Below are positions 351 through 25,376 of a stretch of 64,000 nt of DNA, piece by piece. Source of the DNA: an uncultured Candidatus Saccharibacteria bacterium (lineage in GTDB: Bacteria > Patescibacteriota > Minisyncoccia > Portnoybacterales > UBA2143); contig CAYQQO010000002.1 of the NCBI GenBank assembly GCA_964420115.1, positions 726 through 64,725 on the forward strand, written 5' to 3'. The translations under genes were made by a program, and so were the position numbers. The notes below the pieces were generated by a model that was not told the DNA's origin, did no database searches, and saw nothing but the letters and a program-made list of their open reading frames with translations. Every line of letters starts with the position of its first letter. Within the stretch, counting starts at the first letter, position 1.

Positions 351-563
351 ATGAATAGTGAAATATTCAAGACAATAAAAATTTTGTGTATTTTGAGTTT
401 TGTGGTGGTCGCTCTTACTTCTGTTCCTTTGTTAGTTGCGTATCTGAAAGGAGGCGCTCTAAAATATTCTTTTATCGTAGATTTGCATGTTTGGACAGGA
501 GTAGTTTTTATTATTTTCGCGGTTTTGAGAATAATAAGAACAAAGTTAAAAAATATTAACTAA
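351..563 (+). CDS. small two-helix membrane protein, hypothetical
   Basis: 70-aa ORF with two hydrophobic segments; no recognisable family. Confidence 0.3.
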   Translation: MNSEIFKTIKILCILSFVVVALTSVPLLVAYLKGGALKYSFIVDLHVWTGVVFIIFAVLRIIRTKLKNIN

Positions 564-575
564 TTTTAAAAAAAT

Positions 576-935
576 ATGAGCAAGCAACAAAAACAAGACC
601 CGAAATTCACTAAATTCCACGGCGTGGATCGGGAAAAAATCCAGTGGAATCCGGTCATTGATGAATCAAAGTGCACCGGTTGCGGGATGTGTGCTGCTAC
701 TTGCGGCCGAGGCGTGTATAAGTTTGATTACGAAAGCAAAAAACCAAAAGTGGTAAATCCTAATAACTGCATGGTGGCTTGCCAGACCTGCTTTAATTTG
801 TGCCCGATGAAAGCAATTTCTTTTGCCGAAAATGACGCTACCAGAGAAAAAGCGCAAAAGATCGTCAAAGATTTTCGGTTGCTTCCAAAAGTTAAAGAGG
901 AATTGGAAAAGAGAAAAGACGAACTAGGTTTTTAA
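576..935 (+). CDS. 2[4Fe-4S] ferredoxin-like protein
   Basis: Two cluster motifs, CTGCGMCAATC (CxxCxxCxxxC) and CMVACQTCFNLCP (CxxxCxxCxxxCP). Confidence 0.75.
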   Translation: MSKQQKQDPKFTKFHGVDREKIQWNPVIDESKCTGCGMCAATCGRGVYKFDYESKKPKVVNPNNCMVACQTCFNLCPMKAISFAENDATREKAQKIVKDFRLLPKVKEELEKRKDELGF

Positions 936-940
936 TTGTT

Positions 941-1582
941 ATGAGGAACAAAATTATTATTCCATTAATTTTAACTATTATCATTGCCGCAGGGTTTTTT
1001 GTCTTTAATTTTAATAGACAAAATAAAGATCAAGTTATTACGGACGAAATGCCGGCTCAAGAAAAAATAAGAATTGCGGCTTGTCCAACCTGCTATGAAT
1101 TAAGCAAGAAGCTGGAGTTGGAAAAATATCAAATTATTAAAACCAACTCTACCGCCCAAAGCATTGCTCTTTTGGAAAGCGGGCAGGCTGATATGATTTT
1201 GGCCGGCCGCACGCTTAAACCAAATGAGCCGCAGATGGACTATCTTTTAGTTGATGAGGGCTATTCTTTTTTAAGCAATCAAGAGGTGACAATTTTTATT
1301 GATCAATTAAATAATTATAATGTTTATACCGATCTAAACGAGGAAGAACTAAAAGAAAAATTTCCTATTGAAAAAATTCAAACAGTGGGCAATGTCTATG
1401 ATTATTTAGATAAGGGAATAATTATTACTTCCTGGGAAAATACCGATTACAATAAAGCAGGAATTGTTCATTTATTAGAAGGGAACAGGGGAAGAGTAAA
1501 ATTGTCCAGACGGCCAACGCTTTATTGTCCAAATGTCTGTGACGAGAAAGCCCAAGAGCTGGTTTTATATTTAAAGAAATAA
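941..1582 (+). CDS. membrane-anchored hypothetical protein with CPTC motif
   Basis: N-terminal TM helix followed by an AACPTCYEL CxxC motif; no confident family. Sits in the redox cluster. Confidence 0.4.
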   Translation: MRNKIIIPLILTIIIAAGFFVFNFNRQNKDQVITDEMPAQEKIRIAACPTCYELSKKLELEKYQIIKTNSTAQSIALLESGQADMILAGRTLKPNEPQMDYLLVDEGYSFLSNQEVTIFIDQLNNYNVYTDLNEEELKEKFPIEKIQTVGNVYDYLDKGIIITSWENTDYNKAGIVHLLEGNRGRVKLSRRPTLYCPNVCDEKAQELVLYLKK

Positions 1583-1587
1583 AAAAT

Positions 1588-1636
1588 TTGACAAGCTAAA
1601 TTAATTTTATAATAATATCAATATCTATTGATATTA
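1588..1636 (+). promoter_or_regulatory. sigma70-like promoter (TTGACA-N17-AATAAT) overlapped by a 24-bp palindrome, putative operator
   Basis: TTGACA at 1588-1593 with a 17-nt spacer and AATAAT. TAATATCAATA-TC-TATTGATATTA (1613-1636) has perfect 11-bp inverted arms at and after the -10 box. It lies 17 nt upstream of the glutaredoxin start. Confidence 0.4.
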
Positions 1637-1652
1637 AAATAATCTAAAATAT

Positions 1653-1898
1653 ATGACAAAATCTAACAAAAAAATAGTGGTCTATTCCACTCCCGATTGC
1701 GCTTATTGCTACACTCTAAAAAGTTATCTTGATAAAAAGGGATTTGAATATCAGGAAATCAATATTTATGAAGATGATAAGGAGCGTGAAAAAATGGAAA
1801 AAATTTCCGGACAAAAAAATGTCCCTGTTACGGTTGTTGATGAACAAGTTGTTGCTGGTTGGGATAAGAAAAAAATAAACGATTTATTGGGGATTTAA
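1653..1898 (+). CDS. glutaredoxin/NrdH-like redoxin
   Basis: 81 aa with VVYSTPDCAYCYTLK CxxC active site and a C-terminal GW motif typical of Grx/NrdH. Confidence 0.75.
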   Translation: MTKSNKKIVVYSTPDCAYCYTLKSYLDKKGFEYQEINIYEDDKEREKMEKISGQKNVPVTVVDEQVVAGWDKKKINDLLGI

Positions 1899-1900
1899 TT

Positions 1901-2812
1901 GTGAAGGATTTGGTTATTATTGGCGGCGGAGCGGCTGGGATTACGGCCAGTATTTACGCGGCCAGAAAATTTATTGATACATTATTAATCACTACTGATT
2001 TTATGGGTCAAGTCGGTGTTTCGGCTTGGATTGAAAATTATCCCGGATTTAAGAAAATTTCCGGCTTGGATTTAATTAAAAATTTTAAAGAACATCTGGA
2101 AATGTTTAAAATTGACAAAAAAACTTTTGAGACGGTTGAAAAAATAAAAAGAATAAAAGGCGGTTTTGAAATTATTACTGACGATGCTAATTGTAGGGCT
2201 AAATCAATAATAATTGCCAGTGGTAGCATACCAAAAAAATTAAAAGTTAAAAATGAAGATAAATTCTTAGGCAAAGGAATCTCTTATTGTGTTACTTGTG
2301 ATGAAACGGCTTTTAAAAATAAAATTGTAGCAGTGATTGGCGGCGGCAATGCCGGCATAGAGGGTGCAATTGAACTTAGCAGGTTTTGTGGGAAAATTTA
2401 TGTTTTGGAATGTTTGGATAAATTAGGAGCTGATAAAATACTGCGTGAAGAAGCTAAAAAAATAAGTAAAATAGAAATTATTACTTCTGCCGAAATAAAA
2501 TCATTTGAGGGTGATTTTGGCTTAGAAAAAATTATTTACATAGACAAAAAAACGAATAAGGAAAAAGAATTGGGAATTGACGGTTGTTTTATTGAGATCG
2601 GTGTGATGCCAAATACCAATTTTGTAAAAGAACTTTTATCTTTGAATAAAAAAGGAGAAATAATTGTTGATCCATATACATTAGAGACGAGCATTAAAGG
2701 AATATTTGCCGCCGGTGATGTTAATGATTTGCAGAGCAAGCAAATAGTTATTGCCTGCGGTCAAGGCGCTTCGGCCTTATTGTCCGCTTACAATCATTTA
2801 TTTAAAAATTAA
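1901..2812 (+). CDS. trxB: thioredoxin-disulfide reductase
   Basis: GTG start. FAD motif GGGAAG, redox-active CVTCD, NAD(P) motif GGGNAG and C-terminal AAGDV. Confidence 0.85.
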   Translation: MKDLVIIGGGAAGITASIYAARKFIDTLLITTDFMGQVGVSAWIENYPGFKKISGLDLIKNFKEHLEMFKIDKKTFETVEKIKRIKGGFEIITDDANCRAKSIIIASGSIPKKLKVKNEDKFLGKGISYCVTCDETAFKNKIVAVIGGGNAGIEGAIELSRFCGKIYVLECLDKLGADKILREEAKKISKIEIITSAEIKSFEGDFGLEKIIYIDKKTNKEKELGIDGCFIEIGVMPNTNFVKELLSLNKKGEIIVDPYTLETSIKGIFAAGDVNDLQSKQIVIACGQGASALLSAYNHLFKN

Positions 2813-2825
2813 AAAATATAAATAT

Positions 2826-4058
2826 ATGACTATGATTAAAAGAATATTATTTATTTTGCTATTTATCGCTTTACTTGTTCCCGCAAGTAGTGTTTTTGCT
2901 CAAGAAAAAACAAAGGATATTAATATCTATTTTTTCTGGGGCGAGGGGTGTCCTCATTGTGCCAAAGAAAAACCCTTTTTAGAAAAGCTGGAAAACAAAT
3001 ATCCGCAGGTTAATGTTCAATCTTACGAAGTTTGGGGAAATAAAGATAATCAGAAGCTATTAATTGATTTTGGTAAAAAATTAAATGCCAATATTTCGGG
3101 CGTGCCTTTCACGGTTGTCGGCGAAAAATATTTTATTGGCTGGTATGACGAGCAAAGCACCGGCAAGGCGATTGAAGATGCTGTTAAATGCGCTGAGCAA
3201 AACAGTTGTCGGGATATTGGCCACGAGATTTCAGCATTATCTGTCGAAAAAGATTTAAGCGAAAAAAATGAAGAAGACTGCGACTGCGAAGAAGAACAAT
3301 CACCTCTGTCGCAAAAAATAAAAGTTCCTCTTTTGGGAGAAATTGAAACCAAAAATTTTTCCCTGCCATTATTAACCATAGTTTTAGGCGCTCTGGACGG
3401 TTTTAATCCATGCGCTATGTGGACGCTGTTGTTTTTGATCAGTTTGCTTTTAGGTATGAAAAACAGAAAAAGAATGTGGATATTGGGAACGGCTTTTATT
3501 GTCGCTTCGGCTTCAGTTTATTTCGTATTTATGTCGGCTTGGCTTAACTTGATTTTGTTTATTGGGGTGGTTGTTTGGGTTAGAATTATTATCGGACTTA
3601 TTGCTCTTTTGGGTGGCGGTTACAATTTGAAGGAATATTTTACCAGCCCGAAAGCCGGATGCAAAGTAACAGGCACAGAAAAAAGGCAGAAAGTTTTTGA
3701 AAAATTAAAAAATATCACTCATCAAAAAAGTTTTTATTTGGCCCTAGGCGGAATAATTTTATTGGCTTTTGCGGTTAATCTGGTTGAGTTGATTTGCTCG
3801 GCCGGTTTGCCCGCGGTTTACACCCAAGTTTTGGCTTTGAGTAATTTAGCCAAGTGGCAGTATTATCTCTATATTCTGCTCTATGTCTTTATTTTCATGC
3901 TGGATGATTTGTTTGTATTTTTTGTCGCTATGACGACTTTGCGAATGACTGGCATAACCACAAAATATGCTCGCTGGTCGCGCTTAATCGGGGGGATACT
4001 GATGCTGATTATCGGTTTACTGCTGATATTCAAGCCCGGCTGGTTGATGTTTGGCTAA
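2826..4058 (+). CDS. secreted thioredoxin-fold domain fused to a CcdA/DsbD-like polytopic membrane domain
   Basis: Signal-like N-terminus, then a Trx fold (WGEGCPHC), an acidic Cys linker (EEDCDCEEEQ), and a membrane domain with GALDGFNPCAMW (CcdA-like TM1 SPC/NPC cysteine), a loop Cys and CSAGLPAVYT. The true start is probably ATG 2826 inside ORF 2751..4058. Confidence 0.55.
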   Translation: MTMIKRILFILLFIALLVPASSVFAQEKTKDINIYFFWGEGCPHCAKEKPFLEKLENKYPQVNVQSYEVWGNKDNQKLLIDFGKKLNANISGVPFTVVGEKYFIGWYDEQSTGKAIEDAVKCAEQNSCRDIGHEISALSVEKDLSEKNEEDCDCEEEQSPLSQKIKVPLLGEIETKNFSLPLLTIVLGALDGFNPCAMWTLLFLISLLLGMKNRKRMWILGTAFIVASASVYFVFMSAWLNLILFIGVVVWVRIIIGLIALLGGGYNLKEYFTSPKAGCKVTGTEKRQKVFEKLKNITHQKSFYLALGGIILLAFAVNLVELICSAGLPAVYTQVLALSNLAKWQYYLYILLYVFIFMLDDLFVFFVAMTTLRMTGITTKYARWSRLIGGILMLIIGLLLIFKPGWLMFG

Positions 4059-5383: not shown

Positions 5384-6646
5384 ATGACTATGAATAAAAA
5401 CAAAAAAGAAACAACAAATTATATTATTTTTGCTTTTGTTATTATCATTATTATAGCTTTTGGCTTTTTTTGGTATTTTGACCAAATCCAGCAAAAAGAA
5501 GAACAAGAGCAAGAAGAATTAGAAGTGCCTATTGTAGCGCGTTTTGGTTCAAAAATTGTCTATACCACAAATACTAACACTTCAACAGCTTCTTTTATTG
5601 CTCACTGTCAAAGTATCGGGGGCGCCTTTAACGAGTGCGGGGGTCCTTGCGCTCCTGATGCTGAAAGTTGTGTCAGTGTTTGCGCTTATACCTGCGAACA
5701 AATCTCTGTTGACAATAGAGATAAAGATGGAAAAGATAATATAGCCCAGTGGCAGGAATTTAGTGATAATCAGTTTAATTTTAGTTTGAAATATCCGTCG
5801 GATAATTGGGATATGTATAAAGATATATCTCTTGATGTTGAGCCCAAATTTAATTTTTATATTAAACCAGATATCGGCGCTTCTCTTGACCTACCTCTTG
5901 ATCACTTCGCTAATATTAGTCATGTTTCAGTCTATCCCAGGGGGGTACCAACAGAAGGTGTTTTTGGCCGAACGAAAGATCTTAATTTTGATGTTGGCTT
6001 TGAGACGGCAAATGATTCAAAGGTTTATCTTTTAGAAGACGGCACTGCCTTTGCCGCTTATATAAGGCCGCTTAATCCGCCGCAATCATGGAGTATGTCC
6101 GGCTTTATATGGATGCGCCTTAAGATTAATAATTTGAATACTAAGTGTTTGAGAGATGGGCAAGAGATAAATTTTGCCCAATGCGATCCAGTCGTTAAAA
6201 ACGATCAAATTATTAGAAATGGTTCAGTTGATAAAACTGCTTGGGAAAGGCAAGAAAATATTGTAAAAACAATGAAATTTGAGAAGGGGAGTAAAGCAAG
6301 CGATTTAATTTTTTTTAACAATCCTGTTTCAGGAGATATTATTGAAAGCCCCTTGGAGATTAAAGGAGAAGCGCGCGGGACTTGGTATTTTGAGGCGAAT
6401 TTTCCTATTATTCTTACTGACTGGGATGGTAGAATTATTGCCGAAACATACGCTCAAGCTCAAGGCGGCTGGATGACTGAAGATTTTGTCCCTTTCACTG
6501 CCATGGTTAAATTTGAAAGTCCATACAAAGAGGGAGATCCTGATTTTATGGGGAATGGCTTTCTGATTTTACAAAAGGCTAATCCGTCAGGTCTTTCTAA
6601 AAATGATGATGTCTTGGAAATTATGGTAAGGTTTAAACGGGGATAA
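5384..6646 (+). CDS. membrane-anchored Cys-rich extracytoplasmic protein, hypothetical
   Basis: N-terminal TM helix, then a Cys cluster (CQSIGGAFNECGGPCAPDAESCVSVCAYTCEQ); 420 aa with no known family. Confidence 0.45.
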   Translation: MTMNKNKKETTNYIIFAFVIIIIIAFGFFWYFDQIQQKEEQEQEELEVPIVARFGSKIVYTTNTNTSTASFIAHCQSIGGAFNECGGPCAPDAESCVSVCAYTCEQISVDNRDKDGKDNIAQWQEFSDNQFNFSLKYPSDNWDMYKDISLDVEPKFNFYIKPDIGASLDLPLDHFANISHVSVYPRGVPTEGVFGRTKDLNFDVGFETANDSKVYLLEDGTAFAAYIRPLNPPQSWSMSGFIWMRLKINNLNTKCLRDGQEINFAQCDPVVKNDQIIRNGSVDKTAWERQENIVKTMKFEKGSKASDLIFFNNPVSGDIIESPLEIKGEARGTWYFEANFPIILTDWDGRIIAETYAQAQGGWMTEDFVPFTAMVKFESPYKEGDPDFMGNGFLILQKANPSGLSKNDDVLEIMVRFKRG

Positions 6647-19642: not shown

Positions 19643-21706
19643 GTGTGGGTAAATAATTTTCAGACAAGCAGGCGAAGCGGGCATTTTGAGAAAAGAAGGG
19701 GATTCTCAACCCGGTTTGTTTTGCTTAGTTTATCTATGTCGCTACCAGTTTATTTTTCTCTTACTGCGCCAGTAATTGCTCTTCTTTTTGCTGCTTTTTT
19801 AGCATGGCAGATAAAAAAGCAGGTTGTTGTTTCATCTAAGGTGGCTCATATTGGCCAGATAATTAAAGAAGGGGCAATGACTTTTTTAAATAGAGAATAC
19901 AGAATTCTTTTTATTTTTGTTTTAGTTATCACTGGCCTTTTATATTATTTCCTTAACGCGCAGACAGGACTGGCTTTTATAACTGGCGCTGTTTTAAGCG
20001 CTTTAGCCGGGCAAATTGGCATGAGAGTAGCTACTTTGGCAAATGTCAGAACTGCTGAAAAATTAAACAGAGACTTAAAATCAGGATTATTAGTCGCTTT
20101 TAACAGCGGTAGTGTTATGGCCTTGAGTGTGGTCGGATTAGGGCTTTTAGGTATTGTTAGTCTTTATTTAATTTTTAAAGAGCCGGTTATTATTTATGGT
20201 TTTGGCTTTGGCGCTTCAAGCGTTGCTTTGTTTGCCCGGGTAGGCGGCGGTATTTACACTAAAGCCGCTGATGTGGGCGCTGATTTGGTCGGCAAGGTTG
20301 AAAAGGGGATTCCTGAAGATGACCCCCGCAATCCGGCGACTATCGCTGATAATGTTGGTGATAATGTCGGTGATGTGGCTGGAATGGGGGCAGATCTTTT
20401 TGAAAGTTATGTAGATAGCATTATTGCCGCTATGGTTATTGGTTCTGTTGTGGCTATTGGCGACAAGGGGATTCTCCTGCCTATTGTTCTGGCCGCTGGC
20501 GGAATTATTGTTAGTTTAGTCAGTAATTTGTTTGTTAAAATGGGATCGGCTGGAGTAGAAAAAGGATCTGCCCATAACGTTTTAAACAGGGGGATTTGGT
20601 CGGCAACAATTCTAATGGCTCTTACTTCTTACGGTTTGATAAAATATTTGGGGTTTGGGATTGGTGTTTTTTATGCTTTTTTAACCGGTCTTTTATCCGG
20701 CTTGGTTATTGGTTTAGTGACAGAATATTTCACTTCGCATAAATATCGTTTTACAAGGCAGATCGCTAATTCCGCCCAAACAGGAGCTGGAACAAATATT
20801 ATTTCCGGCCTAGCTTTAGGTATGGCCAGCACAGTTGTCCCTGTTTTAGTAATCGGTACTGCTGTATTTCTTGCTTACCAATGGAGTCAGCTTTTTGGTA
20901 TTTCCATAGCCGCCGTCGGTATGCTTTCCACTTTAGGTATAACCTTAGCAACAGACACCTTTGGCCCGGTGGCGGATAATGCGGCTGGTATCGCTGAAAT
21001 GGCTGAAATGGGCAAAGAAACAAGAGAACGAGCAGAGGACTTGGACGCGGTTGGGAATACTACAGCGGCAATTGGCAAAGGGTTTGCTATTGGCGCGGCG
21101 GCTCTAACAGCCTTGGTTTTAATGGTTAGTTATGGCCAAGCAGTTAAATTACCTTTTGTTGATTTATTTAGTTATAGAGTGATAATTGGTCTGTTTTTAG
21201 GCGGACTGATGCCTTTTATTTTTTCTTCTTTTGCTCTTAAGGCGGTCGGCCGGGCGGCAATGGCTATGGTGGAAGAAGTGCGCCGCCAGTTTAAAACAAT
21301 TAAAGGTATTATGGAAGGGGAAAGACAGCCGGATTATGCCAGATGTGTTGATATCAGCACTAAGGCGGCTTTAAGAGAAATGATTTTACCAGGCGTTTTA
21401 AGTATTTTGGCTCCTGTTTTGGTTGGTTTTCTTTTAGGCCCCGATGCTTTGGCTGGTCTTTTGGCTGGCTCAATCGTTTCCGGCTTTTTACTGGCTGTGA
21501 CAATGGCCAATGCCGGAGGGGCTTGGGATAATGCTAAAAAATTTATTGAAACAGGACAGTTGGGGGGTAAGGGGTCAGAAGCGCATAAAGCGGCAGTGGT
21601 AGGTGATACTGTTGGTGATCCTTTAAAAGATACTGCCGGTCCATCGCTTAATATTTTATTAAAACTGATGGCTATTGTTGCTCTTATTATCGCCCCTTTG
21701 CTTTAA
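19643..21706 (+). CDS. hppA: membrane-bound pyrophosphate-energized ion pump (H+/Na+-PPase)
   Basis: [21 protein letters not shown] and [21 protein letters not shown] motifs; about 16 TM helices. The likely true start is ATG 19736 (MSLPVYF...). Confidence 0.9.
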
Positions 21707-21712
21707 AGCTTA

Positions 21713-22453
21713 ATGAATATTTTTTTCTGGATTTTCCTGTCTACTTTTTTAATTAGTTTAATCTCTTTTTCAGGGGCGCTTGTTTTATTTTTAAGGGAAA
21801 AATTACTTGAAACAACTCTTCTGTGTTTGGTCGCTTTTTCAGCCGGCGCTTTAATGGGGACGGCTTTTCTGCATCTCTTGCCGGAAGCGGTTGAGGAAAC
21901 AGGCGGCAGTTTAACTGTTTTTCTCTATTTGATTATTGGCTTTACTCTTTTTTTTATTTTAGAACAATTTATTGGCTGGCATCATCATGATCAGCGTCAT
22001 CAACGGGCAAAATCCTTTTCCTATCTAATTTTAGTCAGCGACGCTCTTCATAATTTTATTGATGGATTGATTATTGCCGCTTCTTTTGTGATAGCTGTCC
22101 CTGTCGGCATTGCTACTGCTGTTGCGGTGGCTTTGCATGAAATACCGCAGGAAATAGGGGATTTTGGTATTTTAGTTTACGGAGGAATAGAAAAGATAAA
22201 AGCGCTTTTTCTTAATTTTTTCACTGCCATTACAGTGGTTTTTGGCGGCTTGGTTGGTTTTTTGCTGGCTGGAAAAATAGGCCAGTCAATTGTTTTTCTT
22301 CTTCCCTTTGCCGCCGGCAGTTTTGTCTATATTGCTTCATCTGATTTAATCCCGGAAATAAAACACAGAGGAGGCTCAAAAATGTCTATTATCCATTTTC
22401 TTTTCTTTGCAACTGGTTTAGTTTTGATGTTGGTTTTAAAGTTGTATGAATAA
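21713..22453 (+). CDS. zupT: ZIP family metal transporter
   Basis: HNFIDGLIIAASF and ALHEIPQEIGDFGIL ZIP signature motifs, plus a His-rich loop HHHDQRHQR. Confidence 0.8.
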   Translation: MNIFFWIFLSTFLISLISFSGALVLFLREKLLETTLLCLVAFSAGALMGTAFLHLLPEAVEETGGSLTVFLYLIIGFTLFFILEQFIGWHHHDQRHQRAKSFSYLILVSDALHNFIDGLIIAASFVIAVPVGIATAVAVALHEIPQEIGDFGILVYGGIEKIKALFLNFFTAITVVFGGLVGFLLAGKIGQSIVFLLPFAAGSFVYIASSDLIPEIKHRGGSKMSIIHFLFFATGLVLMLVLKLYE

Positions 22454-24123: not shown

Positions 24124-25376
24124 GTGACCATAAAAAAAATTATTATTTTTCTTTTAATAGCCGCTTTTTTTCTTAATTTAGCTGATTTTGCTTTGGCCCA
24201 AGAAAGGCCGGTTCAAGAAAAGGAAGTTAATTTACACTTTTTTTACGGGAGCACCTGTCCTCATTGTAAAAAAGCAGAGGCATTTTTAGAGAAAATAGAA
24301 GCTAAATATCCCTTACTTGAAATAGAAAGATACGAGGTTTATGCCAATAAAGAAAATGCTCAGCTTCTTTCTGATATTTTTGAGTCCTGTCAGGAGCCCG
24401 GTCCGCCAAGAGTGCCAGCTATTTTTATCGGCGGCGAAGTGATTGTCGGTTATTTGGGCGACCAGACAACAGGTAGACAGATTGAAGAAGCTGTTAAAGA
24501 TTGTTTGGCAAATGAATGTCTTGACCCTTTGGCTAATATTAATGAGTGCGCTTTGTGCCAGTGCCAAGAAGGAGAAGAATGTCCTTGTCAGGAATGTGAT
24601 TGTCAGCCAAAAGAGATGGGAGACCAAATCATTGACTATCCAATAATAGGGGAAATTAACCTTTCTGAATTATCTCTGCCTGCTTTGACTGTTGTTTTAG
24701 CCAGCTTGGACGGCTTTAACCCTGCGCTATGTGGGTTCCCTTATTTTTAATCGCCCTTTTGATTAATGTAGGTTCACGCAGAAAAATATGGCTTATCGGC
24801 GGAACATTTATTCTTGTTTCTAGTATTGTTTACTACTTGCTTTTAACCGCTTGGCTTAATTTATTTTTAGCTATTAGTTATGTCACCGCTACCAGAATTA
24901 TTATTGGCACAGCTGCTTTATTAGCCGGTTTTTGGCAAATAAGAAAGTTTTTAAAATACAAACTAGGCGTTTGCGAGGTAACGCCTATTGGCACAAAGCG
25001 GCATGAGCGTTTAGTCCAAAAAATAAAAGAGGTGGTTAGTTCAAGAGCATTGCCAGCTAGCTTTTTGGGAGTAGTTGCTTTAGCTTTTGGCGTTAATATA
25101 ATTGAATTTTTTTGTTCAGCCGGTCTGCCTGCTGTTTACACCCGCATATTAAGTTTGAGCGATTTGGGCGCTTTAACTTATTATTTATATCTTTTGCTCT
25201 ACACTTTTGTTTTTATGCTTGATGATTTAATAATTTTTGGCATCGCCATAATAACGTTGCGGCAAATTGGTTTTACAGAAAAATATCAGAAGTGGAATAT
25301 GTTAATTGGCGGTCTTGTTATTCTTTTTCTCGGGCTGGTGCTTCTTTTCAAGCCGGACTTTTTAGTTTTTGGATAA
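24124..25376 (+). pseudogene. paralog of the thioredoxin::CcdA-like fusion, split by a -1 frameshift near 24721
   Basis: ORFs 24124..24750 and 24729..25376 align colinearly with the 2826..4058 protein: Trx CPHC, a Cys-rich linker CALCQCQEGEECPCQECDCQ, LDGFNP|CAMW and CSAGLPAVYT. Relative to the paralog, one nt is missing in AACCCTGCG (a C-tract), which breaks the frame exactly at the NPC motif. Confidence 0.5.

Follow-up and report, generated by a model that had tools for sequence, protein, structure and literature searches.

In DsbD, CcdA and ScsB, electrons from a cytoplasmic thioredoxin (Trx) pass through two cysteines of a membrane domain to an exported Trx-like module (PMC3322552). CcdA is built from a 3+3 repeat of transmembrane helices (TMs) and its redox-active cysteines belong to PCxxP motifs, one in TM1 and one in TM4 (PMC10319644). 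Here we describe a gene cluster from an uncultured Candidatus Saccharibacteria bacterium, located in a 64-kb stretch of contig CAYQQO010000002.1 (64,000 nucleotides, hereafter the window), that ends in a protein in which an exported Trx-fold domain is fused to a six-TM membrane domain. Upstream of this fusion, the cluster encodes a ferredoxin, a membrane-anchored protein with four conserved cysteines (P2), a glutaredoxin (Grx)-like protein and a thioredoxin reductase (TrxR). We propose, with a probability of about 0.58, that the Grx-like protein, TrxR and the fusion constitute a self-contained route for the export of reducing equivalents, following the conduit logic of CcdA with a membrane domain from a separate family. 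The Patescibacteria, or candidate phyla radiation (CPR), make up a large share of bacterial diversity, live attached to other cells and rely on surface and pilus proteins, and mostly lack respiratory chains and quinones. To our knowledge, extracytoplasmic cysteine chemistry is essentially unstudied in these organisms, and no description of the fusion family in CPR was found in the literature.

As stated in an initial annotation of this DNA, the five genes lie consecutively on the plus strand (Table 1). They are separated by 5, 70, 2 and 13 nt, in order, and have a GC content of ~32-39%, compared with 37% for the full window. The ATG at position 2826, nested within a longer TTG open reading frame (ORF) from 2751, was taken as the start of the fusion because homologues begin there. 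The order P2-Grx-TrxR-fusion is kept in a 93%-identical relative (L088) and in L001, and the shorter order Grx-TrxR-fusion recurs in L001, L009, L031, L063 and L088, indicating that the arrangement is not due to chance. The best promoter-like site found, a consensus match only, falls in the gap between the P2 and Grx genes, from which Grx, TrxR and the fusion may be expressed as a separate transcription unit.

The fusion begins with a Sec signal peptide in which Ala25, at position -1 of the cleavage site, is invariant in 40 homologues. The domain that follows (residues ~30-130) was modelled by AlphaFold2 (AF2) with a predicted local distance difference test (pLDDT) score of 89-93 and the element order beta-alpha-beta-alpha-beta-beta-alpha, and has the features that define a Trx fold, namely a cis-Pro loop and a CxxC positioned at the start of helix 1; both motifs, C42-P-H-C45 and V93-P94, are conserved. 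This model derives from a full-length run with 40 close homologues, in which the membrane half reached a pLDDT of 45-75, so only the Trx domain was used. Its nearest Foldseek neighbours are ~100-aa thioredoxins and also glutaredoxins rather than DsbA (E 6e-5 to 1e-3, TMt 0.6-0.7), with 2e0q as the top match (E 6e-5, TMt 0.66), while matches to Trx-like Pfam families were sub-threshold only (E ~1e-3). Both active-site cysteines, C42 and C45, are kept in 313 of 320 homologues, and the motif reads CPHC in 85 of the 145 representatives of a more diverse, 50%-clustered set and CxHC in most others. The signal peptide, CPHC (residues 42-45) and DGFNPC (residues 191-196) listed in the initial annotation are thus all present, as is the acidic cysteine-containing segment EEDCDCEEEQ (~residues 149-158) to which it had drawn attention. 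However, the linker varies in length and sequence and its cysteines are missing from about half of the 320 homologues, so the acidic DCDC linker does not define the family and was rejected as a functional hallmark. Five positions of the lead-in to TM1 (P168, G171, S179, L180 and P181) are kept in at least 97% of homologues.

The C-terminal 230 residues of the fusion form six hydrophobic helices, in agreement with the helices predicted by AF2. Across 320 homologues, the median number of lysines and arginines is 4, 9 and 3 in loops 1-2, 3-4 and 5-6, versus 0, 0 and 0 in loops 2-3 and 4-5 and the C-terminus. Under the positive-inside rule, these K/R-rich loops, including that between TM3 and TM4, face the cytoplasm, and the Trx domain lies outside; together with the signal peptide and the invariant alanine at -1, this prediction bears out the extracytoplasmic Trx domain of the initial annotation. 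Cys196 in TM1 and Cys324 in TM4 are invariant in the 320 close and 145 diverse homologues. The cytoplasmic TM3-TM4 loop contains Cys279, which all close homologues share and 91% of the diverse set retain, 12 sequences having serine instead. In addition, D191, N194, N318, E321 and D360-D361 are buried and conserved in at least 97% of homologues.

This organisation resembles that of CcdA (5VKV, Thermus thermophilus) in several respects: six TMs with the N-terminus outside, the core topology of DsbD and CcdA; one apparently essential cysteine in TM1 and one in TM4 at mid-membrane, both helices being discontinuous there; a cytoplasmic thioredoxin-type donor encoded adjacently; and an exported Trx-fold acceptor. 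For example, when AF2 was run again on the membrane half, with 150 sequences drawn from two subfamilies, the resulting model (pLDDT 72.8, predicted template modelling score 0.66) had TM1 broken at 193-194 and TM4 at 326, beside the cysteines. Similarly, DsbD and ScsB resemble the fusion in that the conduit is covalently joined to a periplasmic Trx-like domain and draws its electrons from cytoplasmic thioredoxin (PMC3322552). However, their eight TMs are preceded by an alpha domain (Ig-like or ScsB-type) and followed by a Trx-like gamma domain, whereas the fusion lacks an alpha domain, has six TMs and carries its Trx module at the N-terminus. The suggestion in the initial annotation that such a fusion is unusual was overstated, because DsbD and ScsB themselves carry a fused Trx-like domain (PMC3322552) and the architecture found here is common in CPR, occurring in thousands of genomes.

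The two genes directly upstream encode a plausible source of electrons. The Grx-like protein is cytoplasmic, has a CAYC active site of the YruB type, and matches Glutaredoxin PF00462 (E 1e-16; 61.3 bits, cutoff 22.9) as well as, over its full length, YruB TIGR02196 (E 7.7e-23; 80.8 bits, below the cutoff of 88.55). TrxR has the classical dithiol and FAD architecture, with the redox centre CVTC at residues 130-133. It matches TRX_reduct TIGR01292 over its full length (E 1.5e-89; 299.8 bits, below the cutoff of 343.45), the NCBIfam model for AhpF nearly equally well (E 4.2e-84) and Pyr_redox_2 in Pfam (E 1.6e-42), and its PDB matches include 4zn0 (E 1.8e-62) and the C-terminal half of AhpF (1fl2, E 1.4e-58). 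In the nucleotide site, the enzyme reads E170-C-L-D-K-L-G-A-D where classical TrxR has H-R-R-x-x-x-R, and the AhpF segment LLEFAPEMKAD of 1fl2 aligns to YVLECLDKLGAD. As ECLDKLG replaces HRRxxxR and matches the corresponding segment of the NADH-preferring AhpF, this is probably a TrxR-type enzyme whose nucleotide preference has been altered toward NADH. Assignment as a ferredoxin-dependent flavin thioredoxin reductase (FFTR) was ruled out: the FFTR chains 6gna, 6gnc and 6gnd match at E 1e-27 to 3e-26 (6gna 1.3e-27), ~35 orders of magnitude weaker than classical TrxR, and the enzyme still has the GGGNAG motif for nucleotide binding. TrxR-like and Grx-like proteins encoded by adjacent genes are known from Cp34/Cp9 of Clostridium pasteurianum and from NADH-dependent AhpF-type pairs. 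As in these systems, a small CxxC Grx-like gene (YruB TIGR02196) here adjoins that of a low-Mr TrxR-like flavoprotein with Glu replacing HRRxxxR, the nucleotide specificity of the window enzyme being predicted from its sequence. In contrast, the terminal acceptor there is a cytoplasmic peroxiredoxin, whereas the next gene here encodes the membrane fusion.

A cytoplasmic redoxin is also the characteristic neighbour of the fusion elsewhere. ORFs were called, searched and clustered in 85 loci (82 distinct), in which the commonest gene directly upstream of the fusion encodes an 89-aa thioredoxin. Its WCxGC motif at residues 10-14 leaves no room for a signal peptide, indicating a cytoplasmic protein. 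This gene adjoins the fusion, always on the same strand, in 30 of the 82 distinct loci (35 of 85 with duplicates); this is a minimum, as many contigs break off at the fusion gene. Grx and TrxR lie upstream in 5 further loci and in L088; counting either arrangement, ~35 of 82 loci have one immediately upstream. Such a conserved cytoplasmic neighbour from the Trx superfamily fits electron export.

In the pathway that we propose, NADH would reduce the FAD/CVTC centre of TrxR, which would pass electrons to the cytoplasmic CAYC Grx-like protein, the proposed direct donor to the membrane domain. The Grx-like protein would then reduce a Cys196-Cys324 disulfide at mid-membrane, with Cys279 in the cytoplasmic loop as the likely entry or relay thiol, and the membrane pair would in turn reduce the CPHC disulfide of the fusion's own exported, TM1-tethered Trx domain. 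Once reduced, the external domain would act on targets at the cell surface, for which P2, oxidised surface cysteines or methionines and metal-handling proteins are candidates. The analysis itself shows gene content, domain folds, cysteine conservation, synteny and the topology given by the positive-inside rule, together with a suggestive structural resemblance to CcdA. From these we infer which way electrons flow, that NADH is preferred, what Cys279 does and what the substrates may be, the reductive direction being suggested by the operon-encoded TrxR together with redox thermodynamics. More generally, the fusion family is likely to move reducing power out of the cytoplasm to the cell surface. 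Of the idea in the initial annotation that all five genes could carry reducing equivalents from NAD(P)H to the exterior in one operon, the pathway logic and topology hold, and a Trx-superfamily neighbour is conserved, but the ferredoxin appears peripheral.

Table 1 Features of the redox gene cluster, of the fusion protein and of other genes in the window; positions are those of the window unless a related locus is named.
Feature	Position (nt)	Strand	Details
Ferredoxin gene	576-935	+	119 aa
P2 gene	941-1582	+	213 aa
Sigma-70-like promoter match	1588-1616	+	TTGACA-17-AATAAT, 11/12 consensus; P2-Grx gap
Glutaredoxin-like gene	1653-1898	+	81 aa
Thioredoxin reductase gene	1901-2812	+	303 aa
Trx::membrane fusion gene	2826-4058	+	410 aa
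Sec signal peptide of fusion	2826-2900	+	residues 1-25, cleavage VFA/QE; K/R n-region, hydrophobic core
Exported Trx/Grx-fold domain	2901-3260	+	C42-P-H-C45 (nt 2949-2960), cis-Pro V93-P94
Acidic linker	3261-3359	+	DCDC (C152, C154), then conserved VPLLGEIETKNFSLP leading into TM1
Six-TM membrane domain	3360-4058	+	Cys196, Cys279, Cys324
Cys196	3411-3413	+	TM1, DGFNPCAMW
Cys279	3660-3662	+	cytoplasmic TM3-TM4 loop, GCKVTG
Cys324	3795-3797	+	TM4, VELICSAGLP
CcdA (DsbD_2)-P2 region in relatives	L088 213-1570; L001 3377-4796; L086 3695-5055
DUF4405 membrane protein gene	351-563	+	70 aa
Gmad2-domain protein gene	5384-6646	+	420 aa
H+-translocating pyrophosphatase and ZIP transporter genes	19643-22453	+	pyrophosphatase 687 aa
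Paralogous fusion gene copy	24124-25376	+	two ORFs, split by 1-nt deletion

The remaining two members of the cluster differ in how closely they are tied to the fusion. P2 has an N-terminal hydrophobic TM anchor and had been described as a CxxC membrane protein; the anchor and a CPTC motif (residues 48-51) stand, but the protein has four invariant cysteines across five homologues, the second pair forming a Cx3C motif (residues 196-200). No family match was found for P2 in Pfam or NCBIfam, and none in the PDB search. Of two metagenome scans, the first, with P2 alone, gave no match and the second gave two loci. Homologues of P2 lie directly 3' of CcdA, with overlapping stop and start codons, in L001, L086 and L088, and directly 5' of a distant fusion-family gene in L087, and P2 is found next to CcdA or fusion-family genes in five genomes. 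The overlap of the CcdA stop with the P2 start suggests that P2 is a partner or substrate of CcdA, and we regard it as a candidate extracytoplasmic partner or substrate.

The ferredoxin, in contrast, is probably outside the thiol relay of the cluster. It is of the 2[4Fe-4S] type (Fer4_7, E 1.8e-10 in a Pfam scan), with the cysteine motifs CxxCxxCxxxC and Cx3CxxCx3CP. It is not found in L088 or L001, where CcdA takes its place; the order in L088 is CcdA(DsbD_2)-P2-Grx-TrxR-fusion. Among relatives it is otherwise unconserved apart from a 78%-identical copy in L089, where the gene order is Fdx-CDF-Trx-fusion. A feed from ferredoxin into TrxR of the FFTR type was dropped, since the enzyme is far nearer to classical TrxR and AhpF and keeps GGGNAG. 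A DUF4405 membrane protein (Pfam E 3.9e-06) is encoded 12 nt 5' of the ferredoxin gene, and this small, His-containing, two-helix protein could form a separate electron-transfer pair with the dicluster ferredoxin.

The fusion family is large and tightly conserved. It comprises more than 7,000 90%-clusters, the top 120 of which are 56-93% identical, and is carried by at least 593 GTDB species representatives, at 46-68% identity. Searching public assemblies for an exact copy of the window's protein gave no match. Identity overall ranges from 46 to 93% across classes, and at least three subfamilies can be distinguished. Members are found in Patescibacteria (Gracilibacteria, Saccharibacteria, Paceibacteria, Microgenomates, WWE3, Peribacteria and others) and in some DPANN-labelled metagenome-assembled genomes, and are annotated at source as 'thioredoxin family protein', 'thiol-disulfide isomerase' or 'hypothetical'. 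In nearly all representatives the membrane domain is C-terminal, after ~140-200 residues. The family occurs mainly in CPR but is not confined to it, as L085 is a 504-kb contig with 55% GC and with SucC and DUF455 as neighbours. Members in L012, L016, L053, L085 and L072 lie on contigs labelled as DPANN archaea (Aenigmatarchaeota, Pacearchaeota) or Proteobacteria (high-GC, 55-67%), reflecting either horizontal transfer or mis-binning. Some longer members (527-574 aa; P0021, P0059, P0064, P0069, P0071 and P0108) have an extra N-terminal glutaredoxin/redoxin domain and hence two exported Trx-fold modules in tandem. A distant third subfamily is represented by a 376-aa protein in L087 (705-1835; 28% identity, E 2e-49), which has no long linker, reads DGFNVC in TM1 and is encoded 5' of an H+-pyrophosphatase gene.

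Several observations weigh against a reductive conduit of the CcdA type. The label CcdA/DsbD, given to the membrane half in the initial annotation, fails the corresponding check with hidden Markov models (HMMs): the isolated membrane half has no match to PF02683 (DsbD_TM) or PF13386 (DsbD_2) even at E<=10, the C-terminal 219 residues have no relevant match in Pfam (up to E<=10) or NCBIfam, and none of the precomputed Pfam matches of 240 homologues is to DsbD. A PDB sequence-profile search with a 40-sequence alignment matched the Trx domain only and returned no CcdA. Alignment with hhalign against a CPR CcdA profile of 123 sequences, using the whole membrane domain, its N- and C-terminal halves and a diverse 145-sequence version as queries, gave P values of 0.011-0.056 and a Prob below 4%, with registers that were inconsistent between runs. 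In favour of a relationship, one alignment did pair the NPC cysteine with the SPC cysteine of CcdA over TM1-3, though at P = 0.011 only. In addition, an HMM of the membrane domain alone matched 3,629 of 1.84 billion cluster representatives at E<=1e-3 and therefore does not draw in the far larger DsbD superfamily, an internal 3+3 repeat (TM1-3 versus TM4-6, hhalign) was not detected, and Foldseek found no significant match for the membrane model in the PDB. No sequence-profile method thus ties the membrane half to DsbD or CcdA. At the level of motifs, TM1 reads NPCAMW, with P-C present and the trailing proline missing, and TM4 reads ICSAGLP, with no proline before the cysteine, unlike PCxxP; the 28%-identical L087 member has FPCSAFLP in TM4, with P-C as in CcdA. 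The fusion also differs from CcdA in the extra cytoplasmic-loop Cys279, in its invariant buried acidic residues and in the N-terminal fusion of its Trx partner. Finally, although no CcdA gene lies within the 64-kb window, a genuine CcdA coexists with the fusion in the cluster of relatives; as both occur in the same cluster, they are not simply redundant.

Of the conduit features claimed for the membrane half, the six TMs and the invariant cysteines in TM1 and TM4 stand, whereas similarity to DsbD or CcdA profiles does not. Judging from the AF2 model, the membrane domain probably shares the fold of CcdA, and by analogy the fusion would work like CcdA plus Trx, although membership of the DsbD family is undemonstrated by sequence. 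No curated model covers the domain, which represents an uncharacterised family and has an additional conserved cysteine. A bolder interpretation, which we consider a long shot, is that it represents a new class of transmembrane thiol-disulfide transporter and the main envelope redox system of Patescibacteria, with a three-cysteine relay (Cys279, the TM1/TM4 pair and CPHC), derived either as a DsbD/CcdA relic of which only the fold is left or by convergence. In its boldest version, this transporter would operate in the oxidising direction, replacing DsbA/DsbB without quinones and exporting disulfides made on Trx or Grx.

An oxidative pathway could also be built from the known parts without a new class, with the CPHC domain acting as a DsbA-like oxidase and the membrane domain as a quinone-independent analogue of DsbB or VKOR that passes electrons inward to oxidised Trx or Grx. 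CPHC also forms the active site of the oxidase DsbA, the histidine at its third position is kept in most homologues, and the best PDB sequence matches of the Trx domain are DsbA proteins (3hz8, E 2e-4), all of which would fit an oxidising role. Furthermore, exported CPHC Trx folds that are paired or fused with a cysteine-bearing membrane partner are familiar from DsbA-DsbB and from VKOR-Trx fusions, and the true CcdA of relatives leaves room for a second pathway of opposite direction. However, the DSBA Pfam match (PF01323) spans 28 residues only around CPHC (E 0.0057), and the AF2 model shows a minimal Trx/Grx fold with no DsbA helical insertion between beta3 and alpha2. The fusion has no similarity to DsbB, VKOR or their quinone sites, and its cysteines lie within TM1 and TM4 and not in periplasmic loops or the CxxC of a four-helix bundle. 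Moreover, TrxR is encoded in the same operon (window, L001, L009, L031, L063 and L088), pointing to a cytoplasmic partner that is kept reduced, and transfer from a DsbA-like to a thioredoxin couple is uphill by established redox potentials. We consider this direction very unlikely. A role in metal handling, in which the CxxC domain, the CxC linker and the membrane cysteines and carboxylates bind a thiophilic metal, be it Cu, Zn, Cd or Hg, and relay it through the membrane as MerP/MerT do, or reduce metal at the surface, with Trx, Grx and TrxR as cytoplasmic acceptor or reductant, seems only slightly less remote. MerP/MerT likewise pair an external CxxC module and cysteines in the membrane and in a cytoplasmic loop with a pyridine-nucleotide disulfide oxidoreductase in the cytoplasm. 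The invariant buried Asp, Glu and Asn residues would fit a metal-related function, with D191, E321 and D360-D361 lying within the TMs near the cysteines; CxC occurs in the linker of about half of the family, and the linker of a paralogous second copy in the window is very Cys-rich (ECALCQCQEGEECPCQECDCQ). PDB profile matches of the fusion include the ScsC-type copper-tolerance proteins 6nen, 6mhh and 4gxz and the iron-uptake thioredoxin FetE (8t4c), and many homologues adjoin metal transporters or regulators (ZIP, CDF, P-type ATPase, ArsR), other recurrent neighbours being ArsP_1, a YibE/F-like protein, a peroxiredoxin and a DUF5320-like and DUF134 pair. In contrast, the linker cysteines are unconserved, one cysteine each in TM1 and TM4 combined with a cis-Pro-containing Trx fold is a signature of thiol-disulfide exchange and not of known metal permeases, and Pfam and structure searches gave no match to a metal-transporter family. 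There is no sequence or fold match to MerP/MerT, MerP being ferredoxin-like where the fusion has a Trx fold, and the operon encodes a plain TrxR in place of MerA. Equally, the adjoining transporters might be clients whose cysteines have to be kept reduced.

It is also conceivable, though improbable, that the cluster is a mosaic in which the ferredoxin (with DUF4405) and P2 belong elsewhere, TrxR and Grx serve as a general thiol system of the cell instead of as dedicated partners, and the fusion acts independently. Such an assembly would be consistent with the best promoter-like site lying between P2 and Grx, with CcdA replacing the ferredoxin in the 93%-identical relative, and with the absence of TrxR, ferredoxin or P2 near most family members. 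TrxR and Grx may indeed have such a general role, which would count against a dedicated relay. However, the Grx-TrxR-fusion order recurs in distant genomes and is accompanied here by gaps of 2-13 nt, genes of the Trx superfamily occur directly upstream of the fusion far more often than any others, and P2 recurs beside CcdA or fusion-family genes.

The window holds two copies of the fusion within 64 kb, and the membrane half has no curated model. If the family takes the place of DsbD/CcdA in CPR, with its Trx module built in, it would provide a compact single-polypeptide model of transmembrane cysteine electron transfer, an extra relay cysteine for mechanistic work, and a way into the envelope redox biology and metal tolerance of organisms not yet in axenic culture. 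If this holds true, a new family model would be justified, with which thousands of proteins now called 'hypothetical' or 'thioredoxin family' could be correctly annotated.

Besides the gene pairs described above, a recurrent operon precedes the fusion in L008, L018, L022, L029, L030, L036, L050, L062, L070 and others (1-3 kb upstream of the fusion). It encodes a DUF5320-like protein, a putative DUF134 regulator, a YibE/F-like, ZIP, CDF or peroxiredoxin protein, and the 89-aa thioredoxin, followed by the fusion. The names DUF5320 and DUF134 are putative assignments from sequence motifs, and the gene content hints at a metal- or redox-stress regulon.

In the paralogous copy, the deletion falls in a C-run at the DGFNPC codons (aac cc- tgc; ~nt 24719-24726), exactly at the cysteine codon, and is either a mark of pseudogenisation or a sequencing error. 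With the frame repaired, the protein has 417 aa, is ~50% identical to the main copy in the membrane half and has intact 412-aa homologues at up to 68% identity. Downstream of the main copy, at a distance of 1.3 kb, lies a gene whose membrane-anchored product combines a Gmad2 Ig-like domain with a segment of 8 cysteines (HCQSIGGAFNECGGPCAPDAESCVSVCAYTCEQ). Proteins with Gmad2 domains are also encoded near the fusion gene in L088 and L075, and the window protein is a possible disulfide-containing surface client of the fusion. Just upstream of the paralog region, the window encodes an H+-translocating pyrophosphatase and a ZIP-family metal transporter; the pyrophosphatase association is repeated in L087, and ZIP genes adjoin the fusion gene in 7 other loci.

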